64,000 bases of DNA from Raja brachyura (taxonomy: Eukaryota). This document shows, in pieces, positions 16,099 to 64,000 of the stretch; position 1 is the first letter of the stretch, and the number at the start of each line of letters is the position of its first letter. Both the position numbers and the translations under genes were made by a program. The notes under the pieces are model-generated. The model did not search any database and was not told the DNA's origin. It worked only from the letters and a program-made list of their open reading frames with translations. The stretch lies in NCBI GenBank assembly GCA_963514005.1, contig OY740821.1:15128001-15192000 (forward strand). Direction: 5' to 3'.

Positions 16099-16479
16099 TT
16101 AGGAGCAGCCACATCGATCGACCACCATGCCCGGGATTTGCCCGTTGATGATCTCTTGCTTGTCGTTGAAGTAAAGCATGTTGATAGGCGACATTTTGGT
16201 TGGCGTGCAGCACGGGCCTGCGGAGCCTCTGGCATTGGCATGATGTACCAGGTGGGTATGTGGGTATTTCTGCATGAACATGTACTCGCATTGACCAGAG
16301 CAGTAGTTGGCTTTGTATCGTTTGGGGGCAATAATCCAGTCCCAGCCGAAGGCCTCAAAATCAACGGTTAGCGGAAAGCGACAGCAACGTGACTCCGTGG
16401 AGTGCTCATCACAATCCAGCCCCAGGTTTCGGCGGGTACGTTTGTTTGTTTCTGCCACTTTAACTTCCAGAAATGGTTG
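16099..16479 (-). CDS. GDF11: GDF11 coding exon 3 (furin site RTRR + mature TGF-beta domain)
   Basis: Acceptor tttttgacag|CAACCATTT; 381 nt to TAA. Mature peptide NLGLDCDEH...[17 protein letters not shown]...YFNDKQ...[12 protein letters not shown] has GDF11-diagnostic residues (N1, L2, Q46, Y49, M50, M52, D89, Q91, G100). The ORMDL2/DNAJC14 neighbourhood also supports GDF11 over MSTN. Confidence 0.95.
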
Positions 16480-20208: not shown

Positions 20209-20582
20209 CAATCCCTTCTCTCCACTTCCCGGAGATGTGATAGCCAAGTCATTCCCATCCATATCAAAGACGTTGATCTCAATGCCCCAGTTGGTGTGCG
20301 GTTGCTTGAACCAGTTCTGCAGAACGTGCTTAAAGTCGATGCTTTGCCAGCGCCCATTGCGGGTGTCCATGTCTATTTTTAAGGATCGGATCCTCGAGTG
20401 CCTGCTGCCTTTTTCCGTCACAGGTTTCAGCCTGAGGATTTGCAGGTACACTGTGGAGGCGTGCAGTACTGGTCGCAGGTATACCCACAGGTGAGCTCGC
20501 ACCACGTTTGTAAATGTGACTTTGGGGCTAAATTTAAAAAAGCAACATTTTGGACTCCCATCCACTTGGACACAGGGGTCAG
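20209..20582 (-). CDS. GDF11: GDF11 coding exon 2 (prodomain)
   Basis: Acceptor ttctttttgtag|, donor TTG|gtgagt. 374 nt, the typical GDF8/11 exon 2 size. PDPCVQVDGSPKCCFFKFSPKV...VYLQILRLKP...WQSIDFKHVLQNWFKQPHTNWGIEIN matches the GDF11 prodomain. Frame is compatible with exons 1 and 3. Confidence 0.95.
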
Positions 20583-20609
20583 CTACAAAAAGAACAAATC
20601 AAAAAAAAC

Positions 20610-22006
20610 AGAATCAAAGCCAACTAATACATATCTGATTGGATAGAAGTGTAGCCATTTAGTACATTTGACTGGATAGAATTATTGACAACTAAATGGT
20701 ATGTGGATGGATAGAATTATAGCAGCTAATACGTGGATGTAGATCATGTGCAGGCTGATAAGATTAGTTCATTTTGGCATCATGTTTGGCACGGCCATTA
20801 TGGGCTGAAAGGCCTGTTCCTGTACTGTACATGTTCTATGATTGGATAGAATCGTAGCTAAAATTACATATATGATTGGATAAAATTGAATCCACTAATA
20901 CATGTGATTGGATTGAATCGTTCCAACTGGTATGCTTGATTAGATATAACCATCTCTGACTAATATGTATCGGATTGGATAAGTACTTAGGCAATTGGTA
21001 GATGTGACTGTTTGAAATAGAGGCTACTGGCACTTTATGTGATATAGAATCATGGCCAGTTAATACATATTTGAGTGGATGAGATTAAACCAACTATTAT
21101 ACAGTCAAAATCTTCTCTCTCCCCCCCCCCCCCCCCACCACCCCAGGATAGAAATATGGAAATATCAAATACTAGAGGACATAGCTTTAAGATGAGAGGG
21201 GTAACGTTTAACGTAAATGTGCAGATCAAGTTTTTTTACACAGAGGGTGGTGAGTACTTGCAGTGCGTTGCTGGGGATGGTGGTGGAGGCAGATCCATAG
21301 TGGCATTTAAGTGACTTTTTGATGGGCACATGGATATGGAGGGATATGGATTATGTTCAAGGATCATTTCCAGCACGGACATTGTGAGCTGAAGGGCCTG
21401 TTCCTGTGCGGTATCTGAATGGTAGTGTAAACCTGAATGGATAGAATTAAAGGCGACTAATACATTTGATTGCACCGAATCATTACGAGCTATCATTACA
21501 TATCTGGATAGGATCAAATACACCAGCACATATTATTGGATGGTATCGCAGCCAACTAATGCACAAATGATTGGATGGATACATTTGGATAGATTTATCA
21601 CCAACAAGCACAAATCTGATTGAATCAAATCATAGCCGTCTAATGCATTTGACTGGATAGAATTATCACCAGCGGCATGGTGGCACAGCGGTAGAGTTTC
21701 TGCCTCGCAGCGCCCGAGACCCGGGTTCGATCCCGACTACGGATGCTGTCTGTACGGAGTTTGTACATTCTCCCCATGTTATTCGGTTTCTCCGAGATAT
21801 TCGGTTTCCTCCCACACTCCAAAGATGTACAGGTCTGTAGGTTAATTGGCTTGGTAAAGTGTAAAAAATGTCCCTATTGTGTGTAGGGTAGTGTTAATGT
21901 GCGGGAATCGCTGGTTGGCATGGACCAGGTGGGCCGAAGGGCCTGTTTCCGCACTGTATCACAAAACTAAACTAAATGCCTATCTTATTGGATAGAATCA
22001 AACTGG
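20610..22006. repeat. Degenerate ~35-bp tandem array (GDF11 intron 1, next to exon 2)
   Basis: Approximate consensus AGCCACTAATACATATNTGATTGGATAGAATNNT. Units at 20637, 20670, 20707 and onward; interrupted by CR1/SINE pieces. Confidence 0.85.
21672..21976 (+). mobile_element. tRNA-derived V-SINE (HE1-like)
   Basis: A box TGGCACAGCGG, B box GGTTCGATCC, V-domain (ggtttcctcccacactccaaaga), CR1-type tail gggccgaagggcctgtttcc and a (ctaaa)n end. Confidence 0.85.
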
Positions 22007-23779
22007 TTATCCATAGAGCCAGAAGGACACAAAGTGCTGCAGTAACTCAGCGGGTTAAGTTGCATCGCTGGAGAACATGGATAGGCAACGTTTCGGTTCG
22101 GGACCCTTCTTCAGACTCAAATGTGACCCAAAACATTGCCTATCCATGTTCTCCAGAGATGCTGCCTGACCCGCTGAGGTACTCCGCACTTTATGTTCTT
22201 CTGGCTCTATGGATAAATTTATGGATAAGTTTGAATAAATTTATGGCAAAATAATACATTTGGTTGGAACTTTGATCTCATCATTGAATTAATTATTGTT
22301 AGAAAAGAGAATAGCTTGAGAATAGAACAACTTGAGAAAAATAACGTCATCTTTAGATGAACAATTAGAATAAACCTTCACAGCCATTTATTAAGAGGAT
22401 AAATTTGTTTTGTAAAAAGGGACAGGCAGTTCAATACTTTGGGTTAATTTACACTGTTCGGCCTCATGGTGAATTAAAGAATACATCTTGAAAGCAGGAA
22501 CATTCAATATTAATTAATGATCCTAAAATTCAAATTCGGTATAAAACGATTATAATACCCACTGTTTTCATTTTATGAAGAGCTGATCGTGTCAAACTCG
22601 CAGCTGTGGAGAATTGCACTGGGATTTGTATGCCCCATTATGTGCTGCTCTATTTAATAGTGTCGTGTGGCCACAGGGCAGTTAGTCAGCTGCAATCCAA
22701 ACCCATTTGCAGTTAAATGGCCCTATCCTAACAGGCAGGGGTCATGACCCCATATCTCTCTCCCTGCATAACATCATCTGCTTCTCAAAGGATTTGGCCA
22801 GAATTGCAAACAAACACTTCACAACGCGGAATGGGCAAGAACCCCTTTATGCAATTCCCGCAGGATATTTGATCCACTGTTTTAAAAATGGAAATCTTGC
22901 TGTTTAAATTCACAATAAATGAGCCTCTAAAGTACATTTCCTCTCACAGTGTTTGGCTTAAACTGCCCATTGACATTCCAGTTGCCCAGCCCTTATGGAA
23001 TGGTTATATATAGATATGCCAAACCAGATAGGAACAACAGCTTGACTTTCTGAAAGAATATCACTGAACTATTTTCGCTATTGCAACAATCCAGCAGTTT
23101 CAGGGTTACTTTTACTGAGATTTCAGTAAAAGTAAATTTTCAGATTTGGTTGGGTAGCTTCCAGCCCAATGATATGGACATTGAATTCACCAATGTTAGG
23201 TAACTAACCAACAAACACCCAATATGTGGGTGAGAGGACAAATCTGGGGAGAATTGATGGGAACATGGGGAGAATAAATGAGTTACGGTAGGATTAGTGA
23301 AAATGGGTGCTTGATGGTTGACTCGGGGCCAACAGCCTGTTTCTGACTTCTATTTCTCTATGGCATGCAAAGAGATTAAGGATGAATTGACCAAAGAACA
23401 GTCCCTTCAGAATGCTGAATAGGGAGGGGAAGATAAGGTGGTGGGAACTTGCTGTAGACAGCAGAAATAGCAAAGGATGATGTGTTGAAGGTGGAAGTTG
23501 GCGGAGTGAAAGGTGAGGACCAGCTTGTTCTGTCCACGAAGAGAGGGCAGAGAAAGCAGAGGCGGGACGTAGATAAGATCTGGTCAAGAGCTCTGCCAAG
23601 TATGGTGCAGGAGAAGCAACAGTTCAGGAACAAGCAAGACATTTCAGAGGCAAATACAATGGAGAAAGAGGAACTGGGAGAATGGAATAGCATCCTTGCA
23701 TGGGACAGAGTGGGTTGCAGTATGATCGAGATCACTGCAAGACTCTGGGCTTCTCTTGGAAATTGCAAGCATCCACATT

Positions 23780-24310
23780 CTTCAGATGATCCTTTCCAAT
23801 TTCCATCACCTTCAATGAGATTCCACCACCAGGCTCATCGTCTCTTCTCCTCTCTTCTCAACGTTTCAAAAGGATTCCTTCCACCACAGCTCCCGGGGTC
23901 TACTCTTCTACTACCCACTACTCACTTTTCCCACGCAACCATAAGGGATGCAACACCTATCCATTTACCTCTTCCTTTCCACCAACCAGGCAACCCATCA
24001 CACCTTTCAGGGAAGCAGTGATTCACTGGCACTGCTTCCAGTCTAGTGCACTGCATTCAGTGCTCACATGTGGTCTCTGCATTGAAGGCACCACGTGCAT
24101 GCTGGTGATCATTTTGAAGAACACCTGCGTTCAGGCCACAGCCGGGCGACTCTGAGCTTCCCATTGCCTGCCACTTTCATTCCTCATCCCACTCCCATTG
24201 TCATTCTGTCACCTCCTGCACTGTTACAACAAAGCCCGATATAAGCTTCATCTTCTGGCTTGAAATGTTGCAACCTTCTGGACTCGCATTCAATTCAACA
24301 ACTTTAGGTA
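23780..24310 (+). mobile_element. Old Penelope-like remnant (GIY-YIG end)
   Basis: Degenerate similarity to 4340-4840 (cactgcattcagtgctc...gaacacctgcgttcag...ccattgcctgccacttt...tgcaaccttctggact). Confidence 0.6.
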
Positions 24311-24917
24311 ACTTGCTCTCTCTGCTTGTATCAGACATGGCCAATGTGTAATGTTGGCTCAGTGGTTTTCTCTCCCTCAGCACCACTGATATTTCCTACG
24401 CTCCACATTTCCTTTCATTGTGTTCTTGCCCTCTAACTGCCCTCGTTAGCTTTTATGTTCCTGTGTTTATGCTTTCTCTCTGTAAGGGTCCTCATCAACA
24501 GGAAGACTGGATCTACAGCCCCCAAACCTGCAGGAAAGGGGAAGGCAGTCATTCATTGATTCGGTTTAAAGTTTTTAGATATTCATAAGTAATTTTCGGT
24601 GTTTCTTGTTTACCTTATTTTTTTTAACTTTTTCAAAGAAAGATGTCATTTCTTACCAGCAAAGAAATCCTATAGCTTACTTTTGTTTTAGGAACAGCTT
24701 ATTTCAAAATAATTTGCCCGTCGGGTCAAGCAAGAAATGGCAGTTTGTTGTAGGTTCATGAACTAAACTCCAATGGTTTATTAAATGGTCAGTAAACGTA
24801 ATATAGGAATTGCTGATGATAGACTAGCATGCAAGTCTACAGTTTAAAAATTGCCAATGGGCACAAATTGCATGAAAAATGACTTTGAATTGACACCAAG
24901 TCTTCAAAGTGATTGAC

Positions 24918-25410
24918 GATAGACAATAGGTGCAGGAGTAGGCCATTCGGCCCTTCGAGCCAGCACCGCCATTCAATGTGATCATGGCTGATCATCCCCA
25001 ATCAGTACCCTGTTCCTTCTTCGAGTCCGTTGCAATCTCAGATGTCGTTCTGCCAGTATCTGGCGCAGGTCACAGCTGGTCGGGTCGGTTCAGCCAGGTC
25101 CTGCCTTCTCCCCATATCCCCTGACTCCACTATTTTTAAGAGCCCTATCTAGCTCACTCCTGAAAGCATCCAGAGAACCTGCCTCCACCGCCCTCTGAGG
25201 CAGAGAATTCCACAGACTCATGACTCTCTGTGAGAAAAAGTGTTTCCCCGTCTCCGTTCTAAATGGCTTATTCCTTATTCTTAAACTGTGGCCTCTGGTT
25301 CTGGACACCCCCAACATCTGGAACATGTTTCCTGCCTCTAGCGTGTCCAAGCCTTTAACAACCTTGTATGTTTCAATGAGATCCCCTCTCATCCTTCTAA
25401 ACTCCAGAGT
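24918..25410 (-). mobile_element. CR1-type LINE 3' fragment (interrupted)
   Basis: LEFRRMRGDLIETYKVVKGLD...RTRGHSLRIR...FFSQRVMSLWNSLP, the CR1 ORF2 C-terminus, plus the 3' UTR hairpin. Confidence 0.9.
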
Positions 25411-25411
25411 A

Positions 25412-26190
25412 TGCAGAAATAATTTGTAATTTACACATGACGTGTATCTTAGATGATAGATTGCAATTACACACTCATACATACAATCTTTGTTTGTTGG
25501 TGTAATTGCAGATTACACATACAAACAGTATTAACTATTTGCGACTTGCGTGCAAACTTTAGCTTGAAGTAATGAATTGCGATTTGCACTTTATTTAAAA
25601 GCAGAAAATGATTTTGCGACTTAAAGTGCAGACTACAGCTTAAAATGATGGATTGCAACAGACATGCTGAGTATATTCTAGAAATTGCTGATGAACATTT
25701 TACAAAATAAAAGCTGACGTGGAAATGAAATCCATAGCTTAGAAATGTCTGGAGCTTAATATGACACTTTGCAACGTACATATTTGGCCAGTAGCTTAAA
25801 ATGACCATTTGTAGTTTGGGACTTGTATGAGGACCCATAAGTGTAAATTGACAATTTATGATTTGCACATACAAGGAAGATCGCTGGAGTTTAAATTGAC
25901 TGTTTTCAATTCGCATATTTAAAGGGATCATTTAGGATTTGCACTTGATCTATAAAAGAAAAACTCTTGTTTTGCAAATGACCGGTTAAGATGACAATTT
26001 GCAATTTACGCAATGCGCAGGAAAATGAAAACTACTATTTGCAATTTAAATGCATGAAAAGCACAATCAGTTAGCTTAGGATGGCTGTTTGCGACTTACA
26101 CTTATGAACTTAAGCTAAAAATAACTATTTGCAGCTTGCATGTACAACCCATAGTTTAAAATAACTTGTAATCTACAGATGCAAATCTAA
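25412..26190. repeat. Degenerate ~40-bp tandem array (GDF11 intron 1)
   Basis: Recurring AGCTTAAAATGACTATTTGCAATTTACA-like core separated by variable linkers of about 10-20 nt. Confidence 0.7.
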
Positions 26191-28009
26191 TTATTCCCCC
26201 AAGATTACTTTGCTCCTTCTGCAGCAAACATTTAACACATTCTTATTTCCTCCTTTACTTTTCTCTTTCTGTACAAGCTATTTAATATTTATGGAACTGC
26301 TGGAATTCAAGCTGGATCTAACCAAGTTGGGGAGGAAAGAAAATTCCTTTGGTTGTTGCTTACGAACTGCGAGGCACCAGTTGTATCTCGGTATTTTTTT
26401 CCTGCTCAGCATGTTAGAATACTTCTGAGGGAATACCCTCTTCACCATGGCCTCTTGTACACCAATATCTGCCTTGAACCGCTGATCTCAGATTACTGGT
26501 TACATAAACCTTCCTCCTGTGATCTTCCTACGCTTGTAACTCGGGAAGGCAGTTTCTTAACTATTTCTCTTAACTGTGAAGAACCAAGAAACAGCAGGAT
26601 TAACTCACTAATGACTAACAGCAGATTAACAATGTTCATAAAACGAACTGACTGTACAGGTTGGTAGATGATGATAATTAGTCCTCTTGCTCGCTTGAAT
26701 AGTTTTATACGAAACTGCTCTAACTTGCAAGACTGAGATATGATTTCCAAAAAAATAATCTCACCAAACGAGATATAGATAAAGCTCCATCACCTCTCCA
26801 GTAAAGACACATCCCTTCTGCACCAAAGTTGCTGGCCAATGTCCTTTCCCCACAGACAAGGAAGATGAGTACAAGGTGATGATGAGGGTTCCCAATGGGC
26901 TCCATCAAGCCTGGTGCAACCATTAGTTGGGAACTACCTCCGCCTCTGAAGTATCAGTTAAAGCATGGGGGTGGGAGATTGCAACCTTCACGTGGTCCAC
27001 CCTGTTTCGACTAATGCAATCAGCCTGGCGTGCACAAACAAGATCAAACAGAACAAGTTGTCTTACAACTTTAGGCTGTGCACGCCACACGCAAGAAGGA
27101 GAAGAAGTTAATGCATGAATGATAATCCTGTAACTTTGATGAAAGTGCATGGCACATTCTGCCTAAAAGGTGGTGATTAAATCCAGAAACACTGAGGATG
27201 CAACTGTTGAGGGCTTTCTCGTTGGCCTCCGCAGCCATGGTTGTAGAGAGTTGACTTGTTGTTCTACAAACCATCCACCTAATATCTCCTTTTCAGGCAC
27301 CAGGAGAGGTTGCACAAGGTGTCAGGCCACGTGTGGGGGTGACACTACTGAGCTGAGATGCTCCTGAGCTGTAATAATTGGTAAATCTACCTATAGAGAA
27401 GTAAGATAGACTTAATATAGAAGTAAGATAGACCAAGATGTAATGTGTCCCTGTTTGCAAGTTCACTGCCAGCCAATAAAAGCTTTGAAGTCTGCATCCA
27501 ACAGGAAAATTGATCGCCCCCAATGCAAGCAGTCAGTCCAATTTGGCAACATTGGCTTTGTATTATTGCGTCAAAATATCAAGTTGCAGTGTTGGTGAGA
27601 GAATGCTGCTCGGCACTTCTCTCAGTTTTGCCAATATGCTGCGAATCTCAACTGAAGGCACCGCTGGCTCCAAGCAACTATGCAATGATTCTGCTCCTAT
27701 GTGAATGGATTGACGCTGCTTGTTTGCTGCAAGTTGCACCAAATGTCCTTTTCAGTCCCAACTGAAGGCAGGCTCAGTAGAAGGTTAGACACAAGAAATT
27801 GCAGATGCTGGAATCTTGCATAGAACACTAAGTGCTGGAGTAACTCAGTTGCTCAGACATGTCTAGGCAACCTTTTGGAGTGGGACCTTTCTTCAGCCTC
27901 CAAAGATGCTGCCTGACCTGCCGAGTTACTCCACCACTTTGTGTTCTCAGTAGAAGGTTAGCTGGGAAATGCCTCATCATGATGTACAGGCAGGCAACCT
28001 CTTACTCCT

Positions 28010-31000
28010 TCCTTTCCTGCCTCGTGTATCCTGAAATTACTGCTTTAGATTTCCCTCTCCACCGAGACTGCCTAACTTGCTGAATATTTCCATCAATATG
28101 TTTGTTTTTGCTTCACATTTTCAGCATCAGTTTTTCCTTTCTGATGTTACAATGGAAATTACTGCTTCTGACAATTTATGGGGTACAGACAAGAAATGGG
28201 TAATGATATCTCCTGGGAATATAAAATGCAAATGACTGCTTATATTTCATGTTCTTAAAGCTGGAAAATAGTGTTCAGATATTATGGAATGTAGACTGAA
28301 AATTACTTTGTTTTTCTGGATGTGCATGGGAAATCAATGCATCTGATAGTTAACGGACTATAATGTGGAAATTAATCTGGTTGATATTTTATAGATGATT
28401 ACCATGAAATTATTGCTTCAGATTCTTTATGAAGCAGACCTGATATTTTATGAATTAGTAACTAGGAATAATTGCTTCTGATACTTTATGGGCTTTAAAA
28501 GGAAAATAAATGCGTCTGAATTTTGTTTGGAATTTTCTGTTTATGATATTTTCTGGACTAAGGAGAAGAAAATACTGCTGCTATATTGTAGAGCAGAAAG
28601 AGGAAATTGCTCCTTCCTACATTGCATATACTGCAGTCTGGAAATGACTACTTCAAATGGTTTTGTACTATTGGCTGGTAGCTTAGGGATCAAAAGTTGG
28701 AAATTACACCTTGTATGTTCATGGTGAATCGACTTCCAATAAATGATTTACTTTAGAATGGAAATATTTCATGGACTAACAACAAGAATTTACCGCTTCT
28801 GATCGAGGAAAGTTGTCCTTTGATTATTTTAGAGATGAGATATGTGAATTTATCGATGACACATTCTTTGTGCAAAATAAAATGCTGATATTTAATAGAC
28901 CAGAAACTCTTCATTCTGATATTTTATGGCAGATACTGTTGATTCTGTTATGTTCTAGATTTTAAAGAGGAAATTTACGATGCGAATCGAAGCACAAAAT
29001 TAATGCCATTTACAGTTTAAAGACTAAAAACAGGACATTAATGCCTGATATTTTATGGACTAAAGCCTTAAAATTATTGCTTTTGGTATTTCCTGGCCTG
29101 CTGCCTGGAAATAGCTGCTTCTGAGGTGTGCAGACTGTATCCAGCAGATTACTGATTCACCATCCATACACTATAGACTGGACATTCCTGCTACTGATCA
29201 TTTATGGAGTAACAATTAGAAACTGCTGCTTCTGATATTTTATGGACTCAAAACTAGAAACGATGGCTTCTGACACTTAATGGATGTTAAATGGGAAATA
29301 ACTGCCTCTGATTTTTTTTTGGACTCTAAAGAAATATTGCTTCTGATATTTTATAGACTAAATTATTTAGTTGTAAAAAAAGACATCTGATCATTTATAA
29401 AGAATGGAAATTGAAGCTGCTGTTTTTTTTAAGTTAATGGATTAATTGGAAATGGCTGCTTTTAATATTTTATGGATTCATTGCATTAAATGACAAGAGA
29501 TTAGAATTTGCTGTGTCTGACATTTCATGGAGTAAACATTGGAAATCTTCCCTCCTGATACTTTATGGACTAAAGATAAGAAATTAATGTACCTGATATT
29601 TTATGGAGTAGAGATTGGAAATTGGCTCTTGTAATAAACAGAGTAAAAAATGTTGAAATACTTTGTGAAATGTTTATGACCAACAATTGGAATATTCTGT
29701 TCTTTCATTGACTAAAAATTGAAAATTGGCGCACCTGACATTTTTTTAAACTAGGCAATGGAACTGACTGCTGCTGATATTATATGGACTGCTGTGTGGA
29801 ATTTGCTGCTTCTGATGCCAAATGGATAATAAGAAGGAATTTGCCCCTTCGGATACTGCAGAGGTTACTGCTTCTGATCTAAGCTTTAACCAGAAATTTC
29901 TGTTCTTAATATGTTATTGACTATAGACTAGTGGAGACTGCTGATGTTTTATGGGCTGAATCACAAGTTCCTGCTGCTCATATTTTATGGATCCCTGACT
30001 GTAAATAACTGCATCTGACATTTTGTGGATGATAGACCGGAATTAACTGCTCCCGGTACGTCCTGGATAATTGACTGCAGTTTACTGTCTCTGATATTTT
30101 ATGCTTCACAGAGAGAACATTACTTCAACTTGTGTTTTACCGACCACAGGACAGAAATTGATGCTTGTAGCATTTCCTGGACAATGCATGGAATGTACTG
30201 CATCCAGCAATTCACAGACAATGGGTGGGAAATAGTTTCTGATGCTATACAGACTATAGATTACCCATTATGTGGTACAGATTGGATGAAACATTGAAAT
30301 ATTTTACCAACTCTCTACTGAAAATAATTGCTTCTGATCATTTATTGATCACAGACCAGAAATGACTGCTGTTAACACTGGATGGATGTTGAATTAGTAC
30401 ACAGGTGCTTCTGATATTGTGTGGACTGTTACTTGGAATTCCAAACTTCAATCCTAGGAATACCCTAAATGTGGAAATGTTTGTATTTTGTGGACTGTCA
30501 TTTGGAAATTGATACTTCAGACATTTCATGGACTATTATTGGACTTACTGTTTCAGGTCTTTTATGAACTTTGGGTTGGGCATTGCTGCTTTTCATACTG
30601 AATGGAAAATTGCTGTTTCTGATATTACACAGAATGCACTCTGTTAATAATTGTTTTTTATATGTTATGTACTGCATACTGGACATTATTTGTTCTGATA
30701 TTTTACTAACTATAGAGTAGAAATTCCAACTTCTGGTGTTCTATCTAGGGATCGTACTTTATCAATTATTTCATGGATTCATGGACAAGAAATCACATCT
30801 TCAATTCTATCATGTTCTACAGAATGAACGTTAAAGACAATTAAATAGTTGATTGTAGATTGGAAATACTACCTCTGATAGCAGAAAGGTTTCTAAAATA
30901 TACTCTGGAAATTACTACTGATTTTTAATGGATGAGAAGCAGGAAATAACTCCTCCTGAAATGTTATGGGCTATAAACTGAAATTCTTGCTTCTGATATT

Positions 31001-32345
31001 TTATAGATGAACGACTCCAAGAAATTACTGGTGTGATATTTTATCAGCTATCGACTGGAAGTTACTGCTTTTGATATTATGTGCTACAGCCTGAACATGC
31101 TGTTTTTGTCAGGTACTTTTAAGGAAAATACTATATTGGATTTTTTTTATGTGCAGAGTAGAAACAGCTTGGGATATTTTATGGACTTTAGATTACAAAT
31201 AACTGCCTGAGATGTTATGGATTACAGACTGTCAATTACTGCTTCAAATGTTTTCTGCACTTGATAAAATATTCTGTTTCTGTTATTTCAGAAAATGTTA
31301 GGCTCCTGAAATGTACTGATCTGATACCTGATGGGCTAATGGCTTGCATATAATTTATTTTTAATGTGCAACAATGAGGTACGTGAGATATATCATGGGG
31401 TTTACACTGGAAACTCCTGCTTGTAATATTTTATGGGCAATCGGCAGAAAACAAATTGCTTGTTTTAATTTGGGTCAACAATGTGGACATTGTTACTTCT
31501 GATATTTTATTTGCAATAATCTGCAAATTACAAATTCTAATAGGCCATTAATTGGATGTTACTGCTCTTGATATTTTCTATATTATTGGCTAGAATTTAC
31601 TGCATGTAAGGTACCTCAAACAGAAACGTACCACAAGGTATTTGATGTAACCCAGATTAGCAATTACATCTGTTATTTTATGGACTATAAGCAAGAAATT
31701 ACCACTTCTTATGCAAAAAGACCTGTAGTTGCCGGAAATGTTCGGATTCCTGCTGCTGCTGACTAAAAATTATCCTGCTGATATTTAAAATGGAAATGGT
31801 TGGTTCTGATTTTTGCATGTTGTAATCTAGTGTGAACTACTTTGTGGACAAATGGCAGGAAATCACAGGCTCTGACAATGGATGGACTATAAGCAGCATC
31901 TGGCTGTTCCTGATATTTTAGTGACTATGAAAATGAATCCTAAGATAGACACAAAAAGCAGGAGTAACTCAGCGGGACAGGCAGCATCTCTGGACAGAAG
32001 GAATGGGTGGCGTTTCAGGTTGAGACCCTCCTTCAGCTTCAAATCAATCTTTCTTGGTCTAATAAGGGAAATTACTCCTTCGGATGTATTTACAGGAATC
32101 TGCAAGTTACATAGAAACATAGAAAATAGGTGCAGGAGTAGGCCATTCGTCCCTTCGAGCCTGCACCACCATTCAATATGATCATGGCTGATCATCCATC
32201 TCAGTATCCTGTTCCTGCCTTCTCTCCATACCCTCTGATCCCTTTAGCCACAAGGGCCACATATATAGCCAACAAACTGGTTTCTGCTTTTTATTTTATT
32301 TTACAGGATGGGAACTGGAAATTACCACTTTTGATATTTTAAAAC
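28010..32345. repeat. Degenerate ~38-bp tandem array (GDF11 intron 1)
   Basis: Approximate consensus GGAAATTACTGCTTCTGATATTTTATGGACTATAGACT. CTGA anchors at 29232, 29270, 29308, 29343. Interrupted by insertions at about 31940-32040 and 32110-32270. Confidence 0.9.
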
Positions 32346-33160
32346 ACTCCTGATAGTTTGTGAATAATTGTCATTGTTATGATCTAGAAATTAGTGGCTC
32401 AATTTTTGTGAAATAACTTCAGGAGCAATTAGATTACTGTTGCATCTTTCAACCACAAGTTGTATTTTAAAGTACTAGGTATAAATAATAATTTAAATGG
32501 GTGATACAATTACATAGGCTAGAAATAGTGATATCAATAGATTAATTCGTTGTCAATCTTCATTTAATGTGGGGCTGAGGCATTAAGATGATTAAATTTG
32601 TTTTTTTTTAAAGATAGTAATATTCAGATGTGGCTTTTAGAACAGGCATCAATGATGACGATATCAGTTCATTATTCTTCTTATTTGTTTTTCAATGTTG
32701 AACTCCAGCCGACACCTTATTTGATGTTGCTTCTTTAAGTTACCGTTTCTGATTTAACTCCATGCACTGTAGCCCAGAGATTATCGCTAGTTTTACTGTC
32801 AATTTGGAAAAGGTGGAATATTACAACTGCCTGGAGACTGGCTGCGTGGTTGTTCACATGAGATCGCCATCAGGTTAAAGTGGTGTTTTGAGGTAGATTC
32901 CCGTGGAAACAGGTAAGGGGTTGGTCCCAAAATCGCCCCGTCGGTGTTACAAAGTGTAGCGCAGTTTGAGCCAACCAGGTGGTTGATGTCACCTGCGAAG
33001 AGACATATCCGACTTTCGACATAACGGCAGACGCAGTTAAAGGCGACCATTTATTGCATGAGGCTTAACCGACCCCACCCCCTCCGCCAGGGTGACATTG
33101 CCCCTTTGAGCCGTCAACATATTTTCGCCCAGAGTTTGAAGATGGGACAGGGGTACTCAC

Positions 33161-33557
33161 GTTCGGCGGCCATGGTAATGACAGTTTCAGTCGTGGCGTG
33201 ATACTCGTCATCTTCCAGAGCTGGCTCTTTGGCTGAGCAGTCATCTCCCTGGATGTCATAGCGGTCGAGTAGTTGCTGCAAGGGGGGAGCTTTCGGCAGG
33301 AGCTGATTGACAATGTCTCGGCTGATGTTGGGGGCTTGCTTGAGACGCAGCTTGCTCAGGATCTGGGACTTAATGGATTCCAACCTCAGTGCTTTGCTGT
33401 GCTCCCTCCATAAACAAGCGGAGCATTCTTGGCTCCCAGGTTCCGCATGGTCTGAGGCGCTCTCTTCTGCCCCCAAATCCTTCTCCAAGGCTGGCTCGTC
33501 GCTGCCTGTCAATCCTAGAGAGATCAGGAGGCAAAGCAAAACGTGTGGTCTGTGCAT
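33161..33557 (-). CDS. GDF11: GDF11 coding exon 1 (signal peptide + N-terminal prodomain)
   Basis: ATG at 33557 (cagaccATG). Encodes [19 protein letters not shown]...[61 protein letters not shown]...[13 protein letters not shown]. Ends GAAC|gtgagt; 397 nt, phase 1. Confidence 0.93.
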
Positions 33558-33568
33558 GGTCTGCTGGC

Positions 33569-33609
33569 GTGTGTGTGTGTTTATGTGTGTGTGTGTGTGT
33601 GCGTGCGCG
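33569..33609. repeat. (GT)n/(CA)n microsatellite in GDF11 5' UTR
   Basis: gtgtgtgtgtgtttatgtgtgtgtgtgtgtgtgcgtgcgcg lies about 12 nt upstream of the ATG. Confidence 0.9.
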
Positions 33610-33721
33610 CCCGCTTGAGAATGGAGAGACGCGCTGGATCCCAGATTGCAGCCGGCAGTGTAGAGAGGGCAGAGGGTGAGACACACGCTGGTGTATGATA
33701 ACTGATCAACTGGGTCGCCCC

Positions 33722-33805
33722 TTTTTATATTATAACTTTGACCAGAACTATTGCGTCGTAAAAATCTGGGATTGGCTGAACAGCCAAAGGGGTTTTTGGC
33801 TGTCA
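33722..33805 (-). promoter_or_regulatory. GDF11 core promoter (TGACAG, CCAAT, TATA)
   Basis: On the minus strand: TGACAG at 33805-33800, AGCCAATC around 33777-33770 and TATAAAAA at 33729-33722, about 165 nt upstream of the ATG. No upstream ATG in the presumed 5' UTR. Confidence 0.75.
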
Positions 33806-34110
33806 GGAGAAGAGATAAAAAAAATTAAGATATTGCCTTGTGTCAATTCTAGTTATTATTTGCACGTTTCCCCTCCCTCTATCTAGACCTGCTCTCGGGA
33901 TACCATTCCCTGTATTTCATTCTTTCCCTCTTCCATTTGCCGGACACAATTTGGACTATTCTATTCATTTAGTCACAGACTACAGTTTCTATTTACCAAA
34001 CGTGTTTAAATTGACAAACTATTTGATCCCTCAGTTTAACATTGTTATATAGAAATCACCGGCTGTGCTTTCGTGTTTAATTTTCATAATTTATTCCAGA
34101 TCTGTTTCCC

Positions 34111-34112
<2 letters not shown>

Positions 34113-34147
<35 letters not shown>
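34113..34147. repeat. (TG)n microsatellite
   Basis: Pure TG run. Confidence 0.95.
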
Positions 34148-34148
<1 letters not shown>

Positions 34149-36489
34149 GTTTTTTTAATTTTGTTTTTGCGTCGCTTTTAACCCAACCAGGATTGACGAC
34201 CATCGTGCGCCTGTGAAACTGACCCGCAATTAACATCATTGAAGTTTATTGCTACTTGCACCAGGCGCTCGGCACTCTTGGACTGTTGTCTGAATGTGTT
34301 TTATTTACATGTTTTAGCGGGGCGTTCTTGTGAAATAATCTATTGGTGGTGGAAAGAGGGATGAAGCAAAGTGCGGTTTTAGTTCGCTTCCTGGAAGCCG
34401 GGAAGGAAGTCTTTAAATAATATCAGCGTTTTTGTTTCTTGTTTAGGTTCCGTTTATTGTTATTTCAAAACCTTTGTTTGTAAACCGTATCCAAGCATCA
34501 ATCTACTATTTCATTAATTTATGCATGCATTGTAATACATTATAAACAGGGCGGGAAGGAAATTCAAGTAATAATTAACTAAATCTGGTGTAAAAAAAAT
34601 GTATTGGTAATGATGAACCTGAAACTACCGGATTGTTGTCAAATAAAACATGTTTCACTGATGTCCTTCTATGTGACTCCCGGCCTGCCGCTGTGCTTAA
34701 CTCTTAACCGCCTCCTCAGCTCAAAGCCAATTAGGATTGATCCACAAATATTGGCACTGGATAAATCCATATTTTTTTAAATGGTCGTTAGGTTGCACTT
34801 GATGCCGTTTTTTCACCGAACCCATTTGAAACGATTTCTGCGCCAGTTACTGGTCAATTTGGCCGACTGATGAGCGGAAATTGTGACGGTTCTTACTCAT
34901 TTTAACGAAAAGAATCAATAGCGAGAGGGCAAAAAAAGTGACGGTATCCATAAACTAGAATAAAATAAAAGGCTAATAATGAATGCACCAGACCCCAGGG
35001 CCATTGCAATCTGCGGCTTCATCGGGCGAAATGACAGATGGACCCTCTGGTTCCTAATGTTACAAATGCAAGGTGTGAAGCCCGTTCCACAATGCGGGGA
35101 TGGGACTTCAATGTGAAAATGGTCACGTTTTCCTAAATTGATAGAAAGGAACATCAATTATTGGCAATCGAAAAGTCAAAGGAAAGAGATTGTTGAGTCC
35201 AGTCTTAAACCAGGCCAGACTGTTGATCATTCGATTTAATTAAAGCGAGGTTTAAAAAAAAATACCAGCTATCTGCATTCTCCGTTTCCATTTAACCTGG
35301 GTTGCAAATGTAACCAGAACTGAAAAGAAAGGGGCTCTGGCTGATTTGCAGGTGCGGTTATAAAATCGCTTCTGGTTGTCGGGGCGAACTGGTGAAAGCC
35401 ATAGATCGGATTTATTAAGTGCCTTCGTTTTTGTGCACAGACCGACGGAAGCAATTTATTGTATGTGAGATGGGGCGAGGGAGCGAAATGAAGAGACATT
35501 TCTGCTCTGATTCGATCAGATCCGCTCTAATATAAAAAAGTCAAAGTCAAACTAATGTAAAAAGTGTTTGCCGACCGTTTGTTTGACATACGACGACATT
35601 GTAGTGGAATGTTTTAGACTGAGCTTTTCCAGCAGCGCTCGGATTTGAGGCAGTTGGATTGTTTCATTATTGCCACGTCTATCAGGTAGAGTGAAGTACA
35701 TTGTTTTAACGTCATTAAAATATAACGTCGAATTCCGCAGAGCATCAGTGAAAAAGAATCTCCGGATTACGGTATCTCAATGCACGGCATTCTGGTTTTA
35801 AACACAATTTGGGGCTAGAGTGACCATTGCCGCCTCCAGTAGTGGGGCTCCGTCATTGAATCACATTATGGCAGTAGATCCAGTGACTGCTCGTCCTACT
35901 GTCTTTCTCCTCGGCAAATACAGAGGAGAAATATTCCTTGCCCATCTCCTGTGGCTCCACACAGAGGTGACCGCTTTGATTCCTGAAAGGCTCCACTCTC
36001 TCTCTCTCGTTACTCTTTTCCCCCCTTATGTATTTGTATTGTATTCAATTTATTGTCATTATCTCATTTTAGAGACAACGAAATGGATTTATAACATCTT
36101 TTGGGATTGTCCTTAATGCTGCCCGCCAGAGCTATCTCCTGGCCCCTTTTGCCCTTCTGATTGCCTTTTTTAGTTTACTCCTTCGTTCCCAAAACTCCTC
36201 CAGGGATGCTCTTGATCCCTGCTGCCTATGCCTGCCTGTACATCCTCTTGTTTTTGACTAATGTCTCAATTTCCTTCGTCAGCCGAGCTGCTTTGTCCTT
36301 CACTCTACCGGAGGAGGGAGACTAGGCAGGTACCATAACAGCATTTAAAAGACATTTGATCAGCTACATGGATATGCAAGGTTTAGAGGGATATGGGCTA
36401 CATGCAGGCAGGTGGGACTAATGTGTGACTCTTCTAAATAAAGGACAGCAACAAGCGAGATTGGAAATGCATCCATAGGATACAAGAGG

Positions 36490-60214: not shown

Positions 60215-61817
60215 CAGTGGCTTGCAAAAGTTTTCATACTCCTTGAACATTTCTACATTTTGTCACGTTACAACCACAAACGTAAATGTATTTTATTGGG
60301 ATTTTATGTGATAGACTAACACAAAGTGGTGCATAATTGTGAAGTGGAAGGAAAATGATACATGGTTTCCAGATTTTATTACAAATAAAAAACTGAAAAA
60401 TGTGGCGTGCAAAAGTATTCTGCCCCCCCCCCTGAGTCAATACTTTGTAGAACCACCTCTCGGTGCAATTACAGCTGCAAGTCTTTCGCGGTATGTCTCT
60501 ACCAGCTTTGCACAGCTAGAGACTGAAATTTTTGCCCATTCTTCTTTGCAAAATAGCTCAAGCTCAGTCAGATTGGATGGAGAGCGTCTGTGAACAGCAA
60601 TTTTCAAGTCTTGCCAGAGATTCTCAATTGGATTTAGGTCTGGACTTTGACTGGGCCATTCTAACACATGAATATGCTTTGATCTAAACCATTCCATTGT
60701 AGCTCTGGCTGTATGTTTAGGGTCGTTGTCCTGATGGAAGGTGAACCTCCGCCCCAGTCTCAAGTCTTTTGCAGACTCTAACAGGTTTTCTTCCAAGATT
60801 GCCCTGTATTTGGCTCCATCCATCTTCCCATCAACTCTGACCAGCTTCCCTGTCCCTGCTGAAGAAAAGCATCCCCACAGTATGATGCTGCCACCACCAT
60901 GTTTTACAGTGGGGATAGTGTGTTCAGGGTGATGTGCAGTGTTAGTTTTCTGCCACACATAGCGTTTTGCATTTAGGCCAAAAACTTCACTTTTGGTCTC
61001 ATCAGACCAGAGCATCTTCCTCCACATGTTTGCTGTGTCCCCCAGATGGCTTGTGGCAAACTGCAAACGGGACTTCTTATGGCTTTCTTCTTGCCACTCT
61101 TCCATAAAGGCCCGATTTGTGGAGTGCACGACTAATAGTTGTCCTGTGGACAGATTCTCCCACCTGAGCTGTGGATCTCTGCAGCTCCTCCAGAGTTACC
61201 ATGGGCCTCTTGGCTGCTTCTCTGATCAATGCTCTCCTTGCCCGGCCTGTCAGTTTAGGTGGACGGCCATGTCTTGGTAGGTTTGCAGTTGTGCCATACT
61301 CTTTCCATTTTCGGATGATGGATTGAACAGTGCTCCGTGAGATGTTCAAAGCTTGGGATATTTTTTTATAACCTAACCCTGCTTTAAACTTCTCCACAAC
61401 TTTATCCCTGACCTGTCTGGTGTGTTCCTTGGGCTTCGTGATGCTGTTTGTTCACAAATGTTCTCTAACAAACCTCTGAGGCCTTCACAGAACAGCTGTA
61501 TTTATACTGAGATTAGAATACACACAAGAGGACTCTATTGACTAATTAGGTGACTTCTGAAGGCAATTGGTTGCACTGGATTTTATTTAGGGGTATCAGA
61601 GTAAAGGGGGCTGAATATTTTTGCTGCCACACTTTTCAGTTTTTTATTTGTAAAAAAATTTGAAAACCATGTATCATTTTCCTTCCACTTCACAATTATG
61701 CGCCACTTTATGTTGGTCTATCACATAAAATCCTAATAAAATACATTTACGTTTGTGGTTGTAACGTGACAAAATGTGGAAAAGTTCAAGGGGTATGAAA
61801 ACTTTTGCAAGCCACTG
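60215..61817 (-). mobile_element. Tc1/mariner DNA transposon, Passport-like, ~1.6 kb, long (~210 bp) TIRs, TA target duplication
   Basis: ta|CAGTGGCTTGCAAAAGTTTTCATAC ... GTATGAAAACTTTTGCAAGCCACTG|ta. The inverted repeats extend to about 60430 and 61605 and enclose a transposase. Confidence 0.96.
60437..61439 (-). pseudogene. Disrupted DD34E Tc1 transposase
   Basis: ACG in place of ATG at 61439 (xKPKEHTRQVRDKVVEKFKAGLGYKKIS...). HTH and GRPPK motifs present; frameshift near 61080; catalytic WSDE...QDNDPKH...(34)...NPIE intact. Confidence 0.9.
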
Positions 61818-62318
61818 TAATGGTATCCAGAGGAATGACAAGGAACTGCAAATGCAGACTTACCAAAAAGACACAAAGTGCTGGAGCAACTGAACAGGTC
61901 AGGCAGCAACTGTGGAGAATAGGGATAGGCGATGTATCGGGTCTGAAGAAGGGTCCCGACACAAAACATTGCCCATCCATGTTCTCCAGAGATGGTGCCT
62001 AACCGCTGAGTTACTCCAGCATTTTGTCTCTTTTTTTTCTCCCTCTTCTCTCTAAACTAAACTTGGATGGATACATTTGACTGAGCAGTTAAATCATTCC
62101 TATGTTGGAAAGATGTTCCATTGTAATTGAATGAAGAACCCAAGGGTACCTGACAACTGTTAAATTCTATTCTAAGAGTTGGCTCCAGGGAGAAGGGGTG
62201 GGGGTGAGCGGGGAGTGGTGAAGGAGAGGGAAAACCCGATCAGGGAGACTAAAAACAAAACAAAAACCACGCAGCTATACACTTATAACAGATTCGCAAA
62301 AGATAAATGAGCACAAAC

Positions 62319-62438
62319 TTGTGTTTTCCTTCACATTTACTGCACATCATCGTGTTCATGGCCTCCTTCAGGTCATCCTGGAGCTTGGTAAGAAAATCAT
62401 TCATGGATCGGTGTAACTCGCTCTCTGCAGCCCGTTTG
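62319..62438 (-). CDS. DNAJC14: DNAJC14 internal exon (upstream exons not identified, presumably beyond the window end)
   Basis: KRAAESELHRSMNDFLTKLQDDLKEAMNTMMCSKCEGKHK; acceptor ttttgtttttag|, donor AA|gtttgt; 120 nt. Confidence 0.92.
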
Positions 62439-64000
62439 CTAAAAACAAAAGAAATATAATTGGTATTATCTGGCAAGAAATCAAGAGCAGAAAGTGGTTG
62501 AGAAACGTAAACTTGGATTCTGCAATTACTCAGAAATGAAAGACAATACAAACCTCTCACAACAAGATTCGAATATCCATCCACAGGGAAATTCAGCCAC
62601 GATAAAATGAAAAAAATATACAAAAGCCTTTGCATTTACGCAGCACCTCTTTACATTTGGAGGTGTGCAGACACTGTCCCAGAGGCAAACGCGGCAGCAA
62701 GTTTGCGCATAGCAAGATCCTGCAAAGAGCAGGTGACTAGGATAGTCAGCTTGGCTGAAGGACCAGTGGTAGCCACAACACGGGAGAATTCCCCAGCTCT
62801 TCAAATTGTGCCATGAGATCTCTTCTGCCCATTTGAGCAGGAAATCAAAGTCTCAGTGTAGAGACCAAGTAAACAAAGCAACCAATCATCTCAAGGTTGT
62901 TCTTGCACAGCACCAACAGCAAAGTATAGAACACAAATAACATCTCATGCTTTCTCCATTTCACACTCTCCCTATGTTAAAACTATCTACATCATTGTCT
63001 CTTTTAACTAGAATCAATCAAAAATACTTTTAAAGTCTGGAAAGGTGATCTGCCACAAAAAAAGATTAAAACACATTAGAGAAAGGTAAACCTAGAGTTA
63101 ATTAGTATTAGAGCTAATATTATTCGGAGTTTAAAAATAATACTTTACCTTTCAAGTCGTAAGAAAGAGGGAAATTACTAACGTGCATGTTTTGATGGAT
63201 TTTTGTGCTGAGCAATAGTGTATTGTCAGTGCCAAGTAACAGGAAACTTGCTTTGCATCCAGTTTCAACATCAAGTAGTTCTGAAGCAACTTTATAGCTT
63301 ATCTCTGTGAGACTGACATGTCACTATTAATTGATGTGAATTTTACAGGCAGTTTTGCGATGTAGGATTAGGAACTCAATCAAACCTGCCAAGACTCAGT
63401 ACACTTGGGAATTCTGTAGCCAACAGAGAGGAGAATTTCATTCCATTGGCCAGGACCGTACACTCAAAACCAATCCCGTGTTGAAATAGCAATATTCTTA
63501 AAAGTTAGCTGCAGGGAGCTTTGTTAAACATTAAACTGGCTGACATGTTTAAGCAGAGTTTCACTCCCCAACTCAAAACGGCAATCTTTGAAATGGAAAA
63601 TTAGAAAGAGTAATCAAATTTAAGCAGCTCAAAACATGCTAAAATGCTTTTGATATCACAAATAGAAGTTAAACTAACATATTCAAAACAATGGAGCCTG
63701 CAAAGATAAAGATCACAGGTCACATGGATGTATCTGGAATGCAGCACTGAATTTTGCTTACATTTCATATTCCTTCCTCCTCTCAGGATTGCTCACAATA
63801 TCCCACGCTGCTCGCACCACCTTAAAAGCTTCCTCCGATCGGGGGTGTTGGTTTTTATCAGGGTGAACCTGCAATCACAATGGGGCGATTACTTTAAAAG
63901 AGAAAGGCTTTGAATTGATGTGTTTTGTTCAACTACTGCTGGTGATAGTTCACATGAAGATATATCAGTCTTCATTTTTAAAAAATGTTTAACTAAGAGC

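Follow-up and report, generated by a model that had tools for sequence, protein, structure and literature searches.

Why does the first intron of GDF11 at this locus carry a dense, same-strand cluster of TTTATGG words? In the window, by which we mean the whole 64-kb stretch of DNA that was analyzed, this word is found 14 times in the 4.25 kb of a degenerate 38-bp tandem array (array I) and 20 times in the other 60 kb, an approximately tenfold local density. We take TTTATGG to be a site of the Cdx/posterior Hox type. The first-pass annotation had suggested that the array might be a homotypic enhancer born from a repeat or, equally, a neutral minisatellite in decay. We now favor the second of these proposals, and at a probability of roughly 55% we consider array I to be an old, frozen, near-neutral minisatellite restricted to a single locus. 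We infer that it lacks a function.

The host gene, GDF11, is intact and lies on the minus strand, with three exons and an open reading frame of 383 amino acids. The mature domain was found to score 247.8 bits against GDF11 and 236.7 bits against GDF8, and the likeness of the exon-1 peptide is 80% to a teleost gdf11-like contig versus 70% to a mstn-like contig. The product is a TGF-beta precursor encoded by three exons and is nearer to GDF11 than to myostatin. The parts of the gene are as follows.

33720..33800, minus strand: proximal promoter, aligned with upstream sequence from two teleost contigs, one gdf11-like (L001) and one mstn-like (L002)
33161..33557, minus strand: GDF11 coding exon 1, from the open reading frame and comparison with teleost contigs
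20209..20582, minus strand: GDF11 exon 2, from the open reading frame
16099..16479, minus strand: GDF11 exon 3, encoding the mature ligand, from the open reading frame and the match to GDF11

Intron 1 extends from 33160 to 20583 and, with a length of 12.6 kb, occupies 20% of the window. The promoter contains a word at approximately 33766 that we take to be posterior-Hox-like. Positions 16102-16428 encode the mature GDF11 with 8 changes in 109 residues relative to the human chain. The mature domain is regarded as nearly invariant among vertebrates, and the eight changes may fit a loosened, rearranged GDF11 locus. The minus-strand exon at 62249-62635, for which no match was found in Pfam, is presumably DNAJC14-like, DNAJC14 being a human neighbor of GDF11; if so, GDF11 would be inverted relative to DNAJC14 when compared with human. 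A Tc1/mariner transposase in two reading frames is located at 60437-61451. In the available text of a recent preprint, Gdf11 is reported to be X-linked in five elasmobranchs (bioRxiv 10.1101/2025.03.13.642935). The X chromosome that bears it is described, in the accessible parts of the sources, as having a raised Ka/Ks and a HoxC region invaded by repeats (bioRxiv 10.1101/2025.03.13.642935; PMC10620051; 10.1101/2025.06.08.657570), and small shark chromosomes as rich in tandem repeats (PMC10620051; 10.1101/2025.06.08.657570). A separate GDF11 enhancer has been placed 22 kb downstream (PMC3526296, available text).

Roughly 100 highly diverged 38-bp units starting about 0.8 kb into intron 1 had been described previously, and this description was borne out. 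The lag identity over 28010-32345 is highest at 38 (0.362) and next highest at 76 (0.327), over a background of approximately 0.275, and the units lie in register within the 10-100 bp range of minisatellites. Of the 123 unit rows produced by wrap-around alignment, 66 contain at least 30 aligned bases, and the units are 73.1% identical, over 3328 aligned bases, to a stable 38-bp consensus (corrected distance of 0.33 substitutions per site). With lenient gaps, 107 passes through the unit were obtained in 28141-31931. The array begins approximately 0.76 kb into the intron, and its units restart after two dispersed-repeat insertions and continue up to about 32400. Only 2.6 copies were reported by Tandem Repeats Finder.

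28148..~32400, plus strand: array I, a decayed 38-bp minisatellite of approximately 107 units, from lag identity and wrap-around alignment
29187..29623, plus strand: the clearest units of array I, with 5 of the 14 intact TTTATGG words; the unit at 29225-29262 matches the consensus at 32 of 38 positions
31930..32044, no strand assigned: short dispersed-repeat insertion within array I, presumably SINE-like, with many copies in the window and a depth of 1e6-1e7
32089..32265, no strand assigned: second dispersed-repeat insertion within array I, which we take to be like the end of a LINE, from window copies and depth
32737..32788 (52 bp), plus strand: detached remnant of array I of about 1.5 units, with 35 matches in 49 positions

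The TTTATGG words of array I read on the plus strand and are thus antisense to GDF11. The unit contains a 7-bp internal duplication, the two copies of which agree at 6 of 7 positions. The array is noncoding, with a longest stop-free stretch of 118 amino acids and a period that is not a multiple of 3. No match to Rfam was obtained for array I at E values up to 1, and the five weak matches in 20500-36000 all fell below the gathering threshold, with none in the array. The 15-mer that had been singled out as the best-kept part of the unit does recur, with 26 occurrences at up to 2 mismatches in 28010-32345 and none in the rest of the 64 kb, whichever strand is read. The best-kept part itself is a block of 28 positions, and its best-kept 7-mers lie just 5' of TTTATGG.

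Decay across the positions of the unit was found to be nonuniform (chi2 152, df 37). Uniform decay had been named in advance as an outcome that would speak against a function of the motif, and this first test was therefore passed. The profile consists of the well-kept block of 28 positions, at about 0.77, and a contiguous hypervariable block at positions 23-32 (0.616), with no peak on TTTATGG. Within the array, the TTTATGG core is kept at 0.781 versus 0.767 for the other 21 well-kept positions (p 0.43); the motif is clustered but is no better kept than its neighbors. Intact cores number 14 of 77, where 12.1 are expected from the binomial distribution, and the mismatches per core are also binomial. 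Within the conserved block, few positions are kept as poorly as the third T of TTTAT, which is C in 20 of 92 cases, and the commonest change in the core breaks TTTAT. The identities of the units have a standard deviation of 0.071 versus a binomial value of 0.073, and therefore no subset of units has been preserved.

The contiguity of the hypervariable block was not equaled in any of 20000 permutations. Neutral evolution of the array was simulated under three models with shared ancestry (55 runs each; identities of 0.739, 0.725, and 0.709). The overall heterogeneity was reached in up to 19 of 55 runs and the hypervariable block in 0 of 55 for each model. The simulated arrays attained the core excess in 0, 1, and 3 of 55 runs, and the count of intact cores in 3, 6, and 2 of 55. 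Three causes of the block at positions 23-32 were considered and set aside. Context-dependent mutation rates taken from the dispersed repeats of the window, a noisy control with overlapping families, do not predict it (rho -0.25, p 0.13); the dinucleotide counts do not fit an ancestral CpG; and no indel hot spot was seen. Neighboring units share more variants (1.73 versus 1.15-1.48), and the A/G state at unit position 28 is clustered along the array (z -2.3); both are weak traces of past local duplication.

The array stretch was present in 20 of the 21 listed sequencing runs, which come from seven organisms and ten studies; none of the runs listed as containing it was an RNA run. Four runs (X7, X11, X14, and X20) were compared at 80% likeness, and among the contigs listed, long pieces over array I were provided by X14 and X20; the denominators of the divergences are contig or window lengths. 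For array I, 184 differences in 3853 positions (4.8%) were counted in X14 and 193 in 3770 (5.1%) in X20. The flanking intron gave 43/1148 (3.7%) and 38/708 (5.4%), respectively, with p values of 0.15 and 0.78 against the array. The intron piece adjoining exon 1 differs by 7.2% in X14 and 10.2% in X20, and array I is the slower of the two (p 0.097 and 0.009). In both of the two runs with listed spanning contigs, the array has thus changed at the rate of the flanking intron and below that of the exon-proximal piece, although contig totals are blind to selection on the approximately 100 bp of intact sites. One contig of 3853 bp from X14 spans the array with 184 substitutions and only 73 gap letters, and therefore the number of units has not turned over since that split.

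The distance of the units to their consensus (0.33) exceeds the per-lineage distance to two of the seven organisms, F and G, by a factor of about 13. Mutation rates in sharks are reported to be as low as 7e-10 per generation (PMC10587355, available text). At such rates a purely star-like decay would be impossibly long, and therefore either the lineage was faster or much of the divergence arose during turnover. The split between sharks and skates is dated to approximately 286 million years in the accessible text of PMC10115646. Array I may be of an age near this split, which predicts remnants in distant relatives.

The same intron is known for an enhancer in mouse. According to the available text of PMC10978735, intron 1 of mouse Gdf11 contains a tail-bud enhancer, HCR, with the conserved elements a, b, and c. 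Loss of HCR reduces expression to 30-40% and shifts the sacrum, and the printed oligos of elements a and b carry TTTATGG-type sites. Our literature search, which reached a minority of the subscription journals, found no publication on array I or on HCR in cartilaginous fishes. Comparison of the three elements with the window identified the following sites.

35320..35366, plus strand: homologue of element b, upstream of exon 1, with a score of 40 that was reached by 0 of 150 shuffled oligos (maximum 35)
35487..35510, plus strand: probable homologue of element c, approximately 120 bp after b (p 0.004 within the 500 bp after b; window-wide p 0.25)
34746..34770, plus strand: weak similarity to element a, confined to its 3' half and lacking the TTTATGG core (p 0.017 within the 1.5 kb before b; window-wide p 0.18)

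The homologues of b and c are located 1.8 kb upstream of the GDF11 start codon, and the a-like site, b, and c are collinear. In the b homologue, two of the three TTTAT-type sites are not kept and the third is altered. No remnants of b or c were found in intron 1, and none of the three elements was matched in the teleost contigs L001-L003, of which L001 covers about the first 0.5 kb of the intron. The dispersed-repeat families of the window are presumably those of a cartilaginous fish, as the first-pass annotation had also supposed. The presence of b, and probably of c, in this locus suggests that the enhancer is older than the tetrapods.

The unit of array I resembles element a. Among nine pairings of a unit with an oligo this is the only significant one (p 0.0005), and given the shared 8-bp core, the likeness has a post hoc p value of 0.02-0.03 for the 38-mer and of 0.002-0.004 when the omission of any one 7-bp block is allowed. 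Element a scores 39 against the unit versus at most 28 at any of the 20 TTTATGG sites that occur naturally in the rest of the window (shuffle p 0.0007), and the block dropped in the alignment is one copy of the internal duplication of the unit. The unit positions that match a are no better kept than the others (0.735 versus 0.718, p 0.28). Array I lies in the same intron as mouse element a and on the same strand as the matches to b and c; the upstream a-like site at 34746 is a rival candidate and is unlike the unit (p 0.44-0.53). Because the likeness was first seen by eye and only then tested, we rate descent of the seed unit from element a at somewhat below even odds. With mouse oligos that are antisense to the gene, the present order would follow from a single duplication and reciprocal loss, with a staying intronic in its old orientation; with sense oligos, two or three inversions would be needed.

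Two further arrays with unrelated units are found in intron 1.

20608..21673, possibly reaching ~22260, plus strand: array II, a decayed 35-bp minisatellite (77%)
25421..26185, plus strand: array III, a decayed 40-bp minisatellite (76%), within a slow stretch at 25500-26414

Array II starts approximately 25 bp from the exon 2 acceptor, and its core, presumably CCAAT-box-like, is kept at about 0.9. The recurring word of array III is one that we take to be octamer-like. The stretch at 25421-26414, with one TTTATGG at 26288, shows 1.2-2.2% divergence versus 3.7-5.4% in its flanks and is 2-4 times slower in three organisms, comparisons that share a lineage and are not independent. For 25500-26414, the differences are 12/915 (1.3%) in X14 and 18/833 (2.2%) in X20, with p values of 1.5e-7 and 1e-4 against array I. 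It would thus be array III, and not array I, that bears the signature of constraint, as the better enhancer candidate of the two and the best candidate in the window for a constrained intronic element. At 26372, runs X11, X14, and X20 have 16 extra bases that are absent from the window and from X7. A common origin of the three arrays was not supported (p 0.26-0.66), nor was derivation of arrays II and III from b, c, or the promoter, for which one gappy match (p 0.012 in one of two scorings) was discounted. An inverted repeat of approximately 210 bp at 22007-22216 of the intron consists of two head-to-head short dispersed repeats (80%). The three arrays cover about 6 of the 12.6 kb of intron 1, which holds all tiles with a recurrent-word z of at least 7.8; the rest of the window yielded no array of this kind.

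The near-neutral minisatellite accounts for the period and extent of array I, its single locus in the window, the even decay across its units, and its neutral-like rate relative to two related organisms, and the two other unrelated decayed arrays in the same intron count in its favor. Against it stand the unexplained hypervariable block, the slower change of the array relative to the intron next to exon 1, the likeness to element a, and the location of all three arrays of the window in one intron. The array would have grown by local tandem duplication, after which turnover would have stopped and point mutations and small indels would have eroded the units at about the ordinary rate of an intron. 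The dense same-strand TTTATGG cluster would then persist only because the seed unit had such a word. That seed could have originated as a copy of element a of the ancient Gdf11 enhancer, which is compatible with a relic.

Less likely in our estimate, but a serious rival, is that array I is instead a redundant enhancer in which element a was amplified about 100-fold with a 7-bp internal duplication, taking Cdx/posterior-Hox input from full and low-affinity sites, with b and c left upstream with eroded sites. Such redundancy would hide constraint on single sites. The pairing of the unit with a, its score relative to other TTTATGG sites, the dropped block, and the presence of b and probably c in the locus all argue for this possibility, as do two points in the available text of PMC10978735: tandem copies of b are active in chick reporters whereas a single copy is not (7/7 versus 0/11), and its authors expect Gdf11 to have further enhancers that are specific to particular species. 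The same text reports that three tandem copies of a are silent in chick (0/6). The likeness to a was tested after its discovery by eye, the positions shared with a show no better retention, the separate a-like site that is collinear with b and c is unlike the unit, and no constraint was seen at the level of either motif or rate. The proposal of a homotypic enhancer has held up in its motif density, its nonuniform decay, its single locus, and its host intron, the site of the mouse enhancer, but not in any protection of the motif, whereas the neutral alternative is at present the better fit, with a core kept like its neighbors and a rate like that of the flanking intron. A broader scheme appears doubtful to us. 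Here, element a of an enhancer common to jawed vertebrates would have been amplified 100-fold in a rearranged locus, b and c would have lost their Cdx/Hox-type sites upstream, and posterior input would arrive through intronic minisatellites, redundantly in array I and under visible constraint in array III. If this were true, the control of GDF11, and with it the trunk-tail transition and the pelvic position, would have been rebuilt from tandem repeats in this lineage.

The concentration of high-scoring tiles and arrays in intron 1 and the freedom of 27948-31930 from dispersed-repeat insertions are what might be expected if the three arrays served a structural or spacing role, either in chromatin organization or by lengthening intron 1 and delaying the transcript, while their sequence drifted. 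The gap in insertions is not significant (p 0.06) and is exceeded by others in the window; the units are unrelated, and we consider such a role quite improbable. Least credible is that array I is a piece of a satellite, transposon, or viral repeat dispersed at many loci. The summed depth over 28294-31595 is 46-80 in X14 (spanning contig 44) and 27-86 in X20 (contigs 26-28), versus 1e5-1e7 on dispersed repeats at 80% likeness, where depth is not copy number. No second copy of array I was found in the 64-kb window, and a 21-mer had 0 exact matches in viral contigs. Equally old paralogous arrays would be about 56% alike pairwise, below the 80% likeness used. The scattering of the repeat over many loci, which the first-pass annotation had listed as contrary evidence, was thus not seen, either as a high-copy family at 80% likeness or elsewhere in the window.

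The level of Gdf11 sets the position of the hindlimb and sacrum, and the characterized enhancer explains only a part of its expression (PMC10978735, available text). The locus described here provides three named enhancer candidates, namely arrays I and III and the b/c homologue displaced upstream. Should array I prove to be an amplified element a, it would provide an uncommon instance in which part of a developmental enhancer became a minisatellite. Should it prove inert, it would usefully illustrate that motifs can be densely clustered at a suggestive location without being under selection.

Like homotypic site clusters and repeat-derived enhancers, array I has an approximately tenfold motif density on one strand; unlike them, it conserves the motif no more than its neighbors. 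With decayed minisatellites it shares the head-to-tail arrangement of its 38-bp units at a single locus, the signs of earlier local duplication, and interruption by dispersed repeats, but it is very old for its size, is nearly invisible to Tandem Repeats Finder, and has a contiguous hypervariable block. The mouse HCR is found in the same intron of the same gene, its a and b oligos carry TTTATGG-type sites, and its element a resembles the unit (PMC10978735, available text). In the same source, HCR is single-copy, nonrepetitive, and conserved among six amniote genomes, with a function established by reporter and knockout, whereas in the present locus the matches to b and c sit ahead of exon 1, their sites eroded, and the a-like sequence is repeated about 100-fold. 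In rumpless chickens, the accessible text of PMC13696352 describes the tandem duplication of a conserved enhancer that affects expression in the tail bud. To judge from its title, that duplication is recent and has a phenotype, whereas array I is ancient, short in its unit, decayed, and of no known phenotype; tandem amplification of an enhancer would be common to both if array I is an enhancer. The array itself is of a familiar kind; it is the setting that is unusual.
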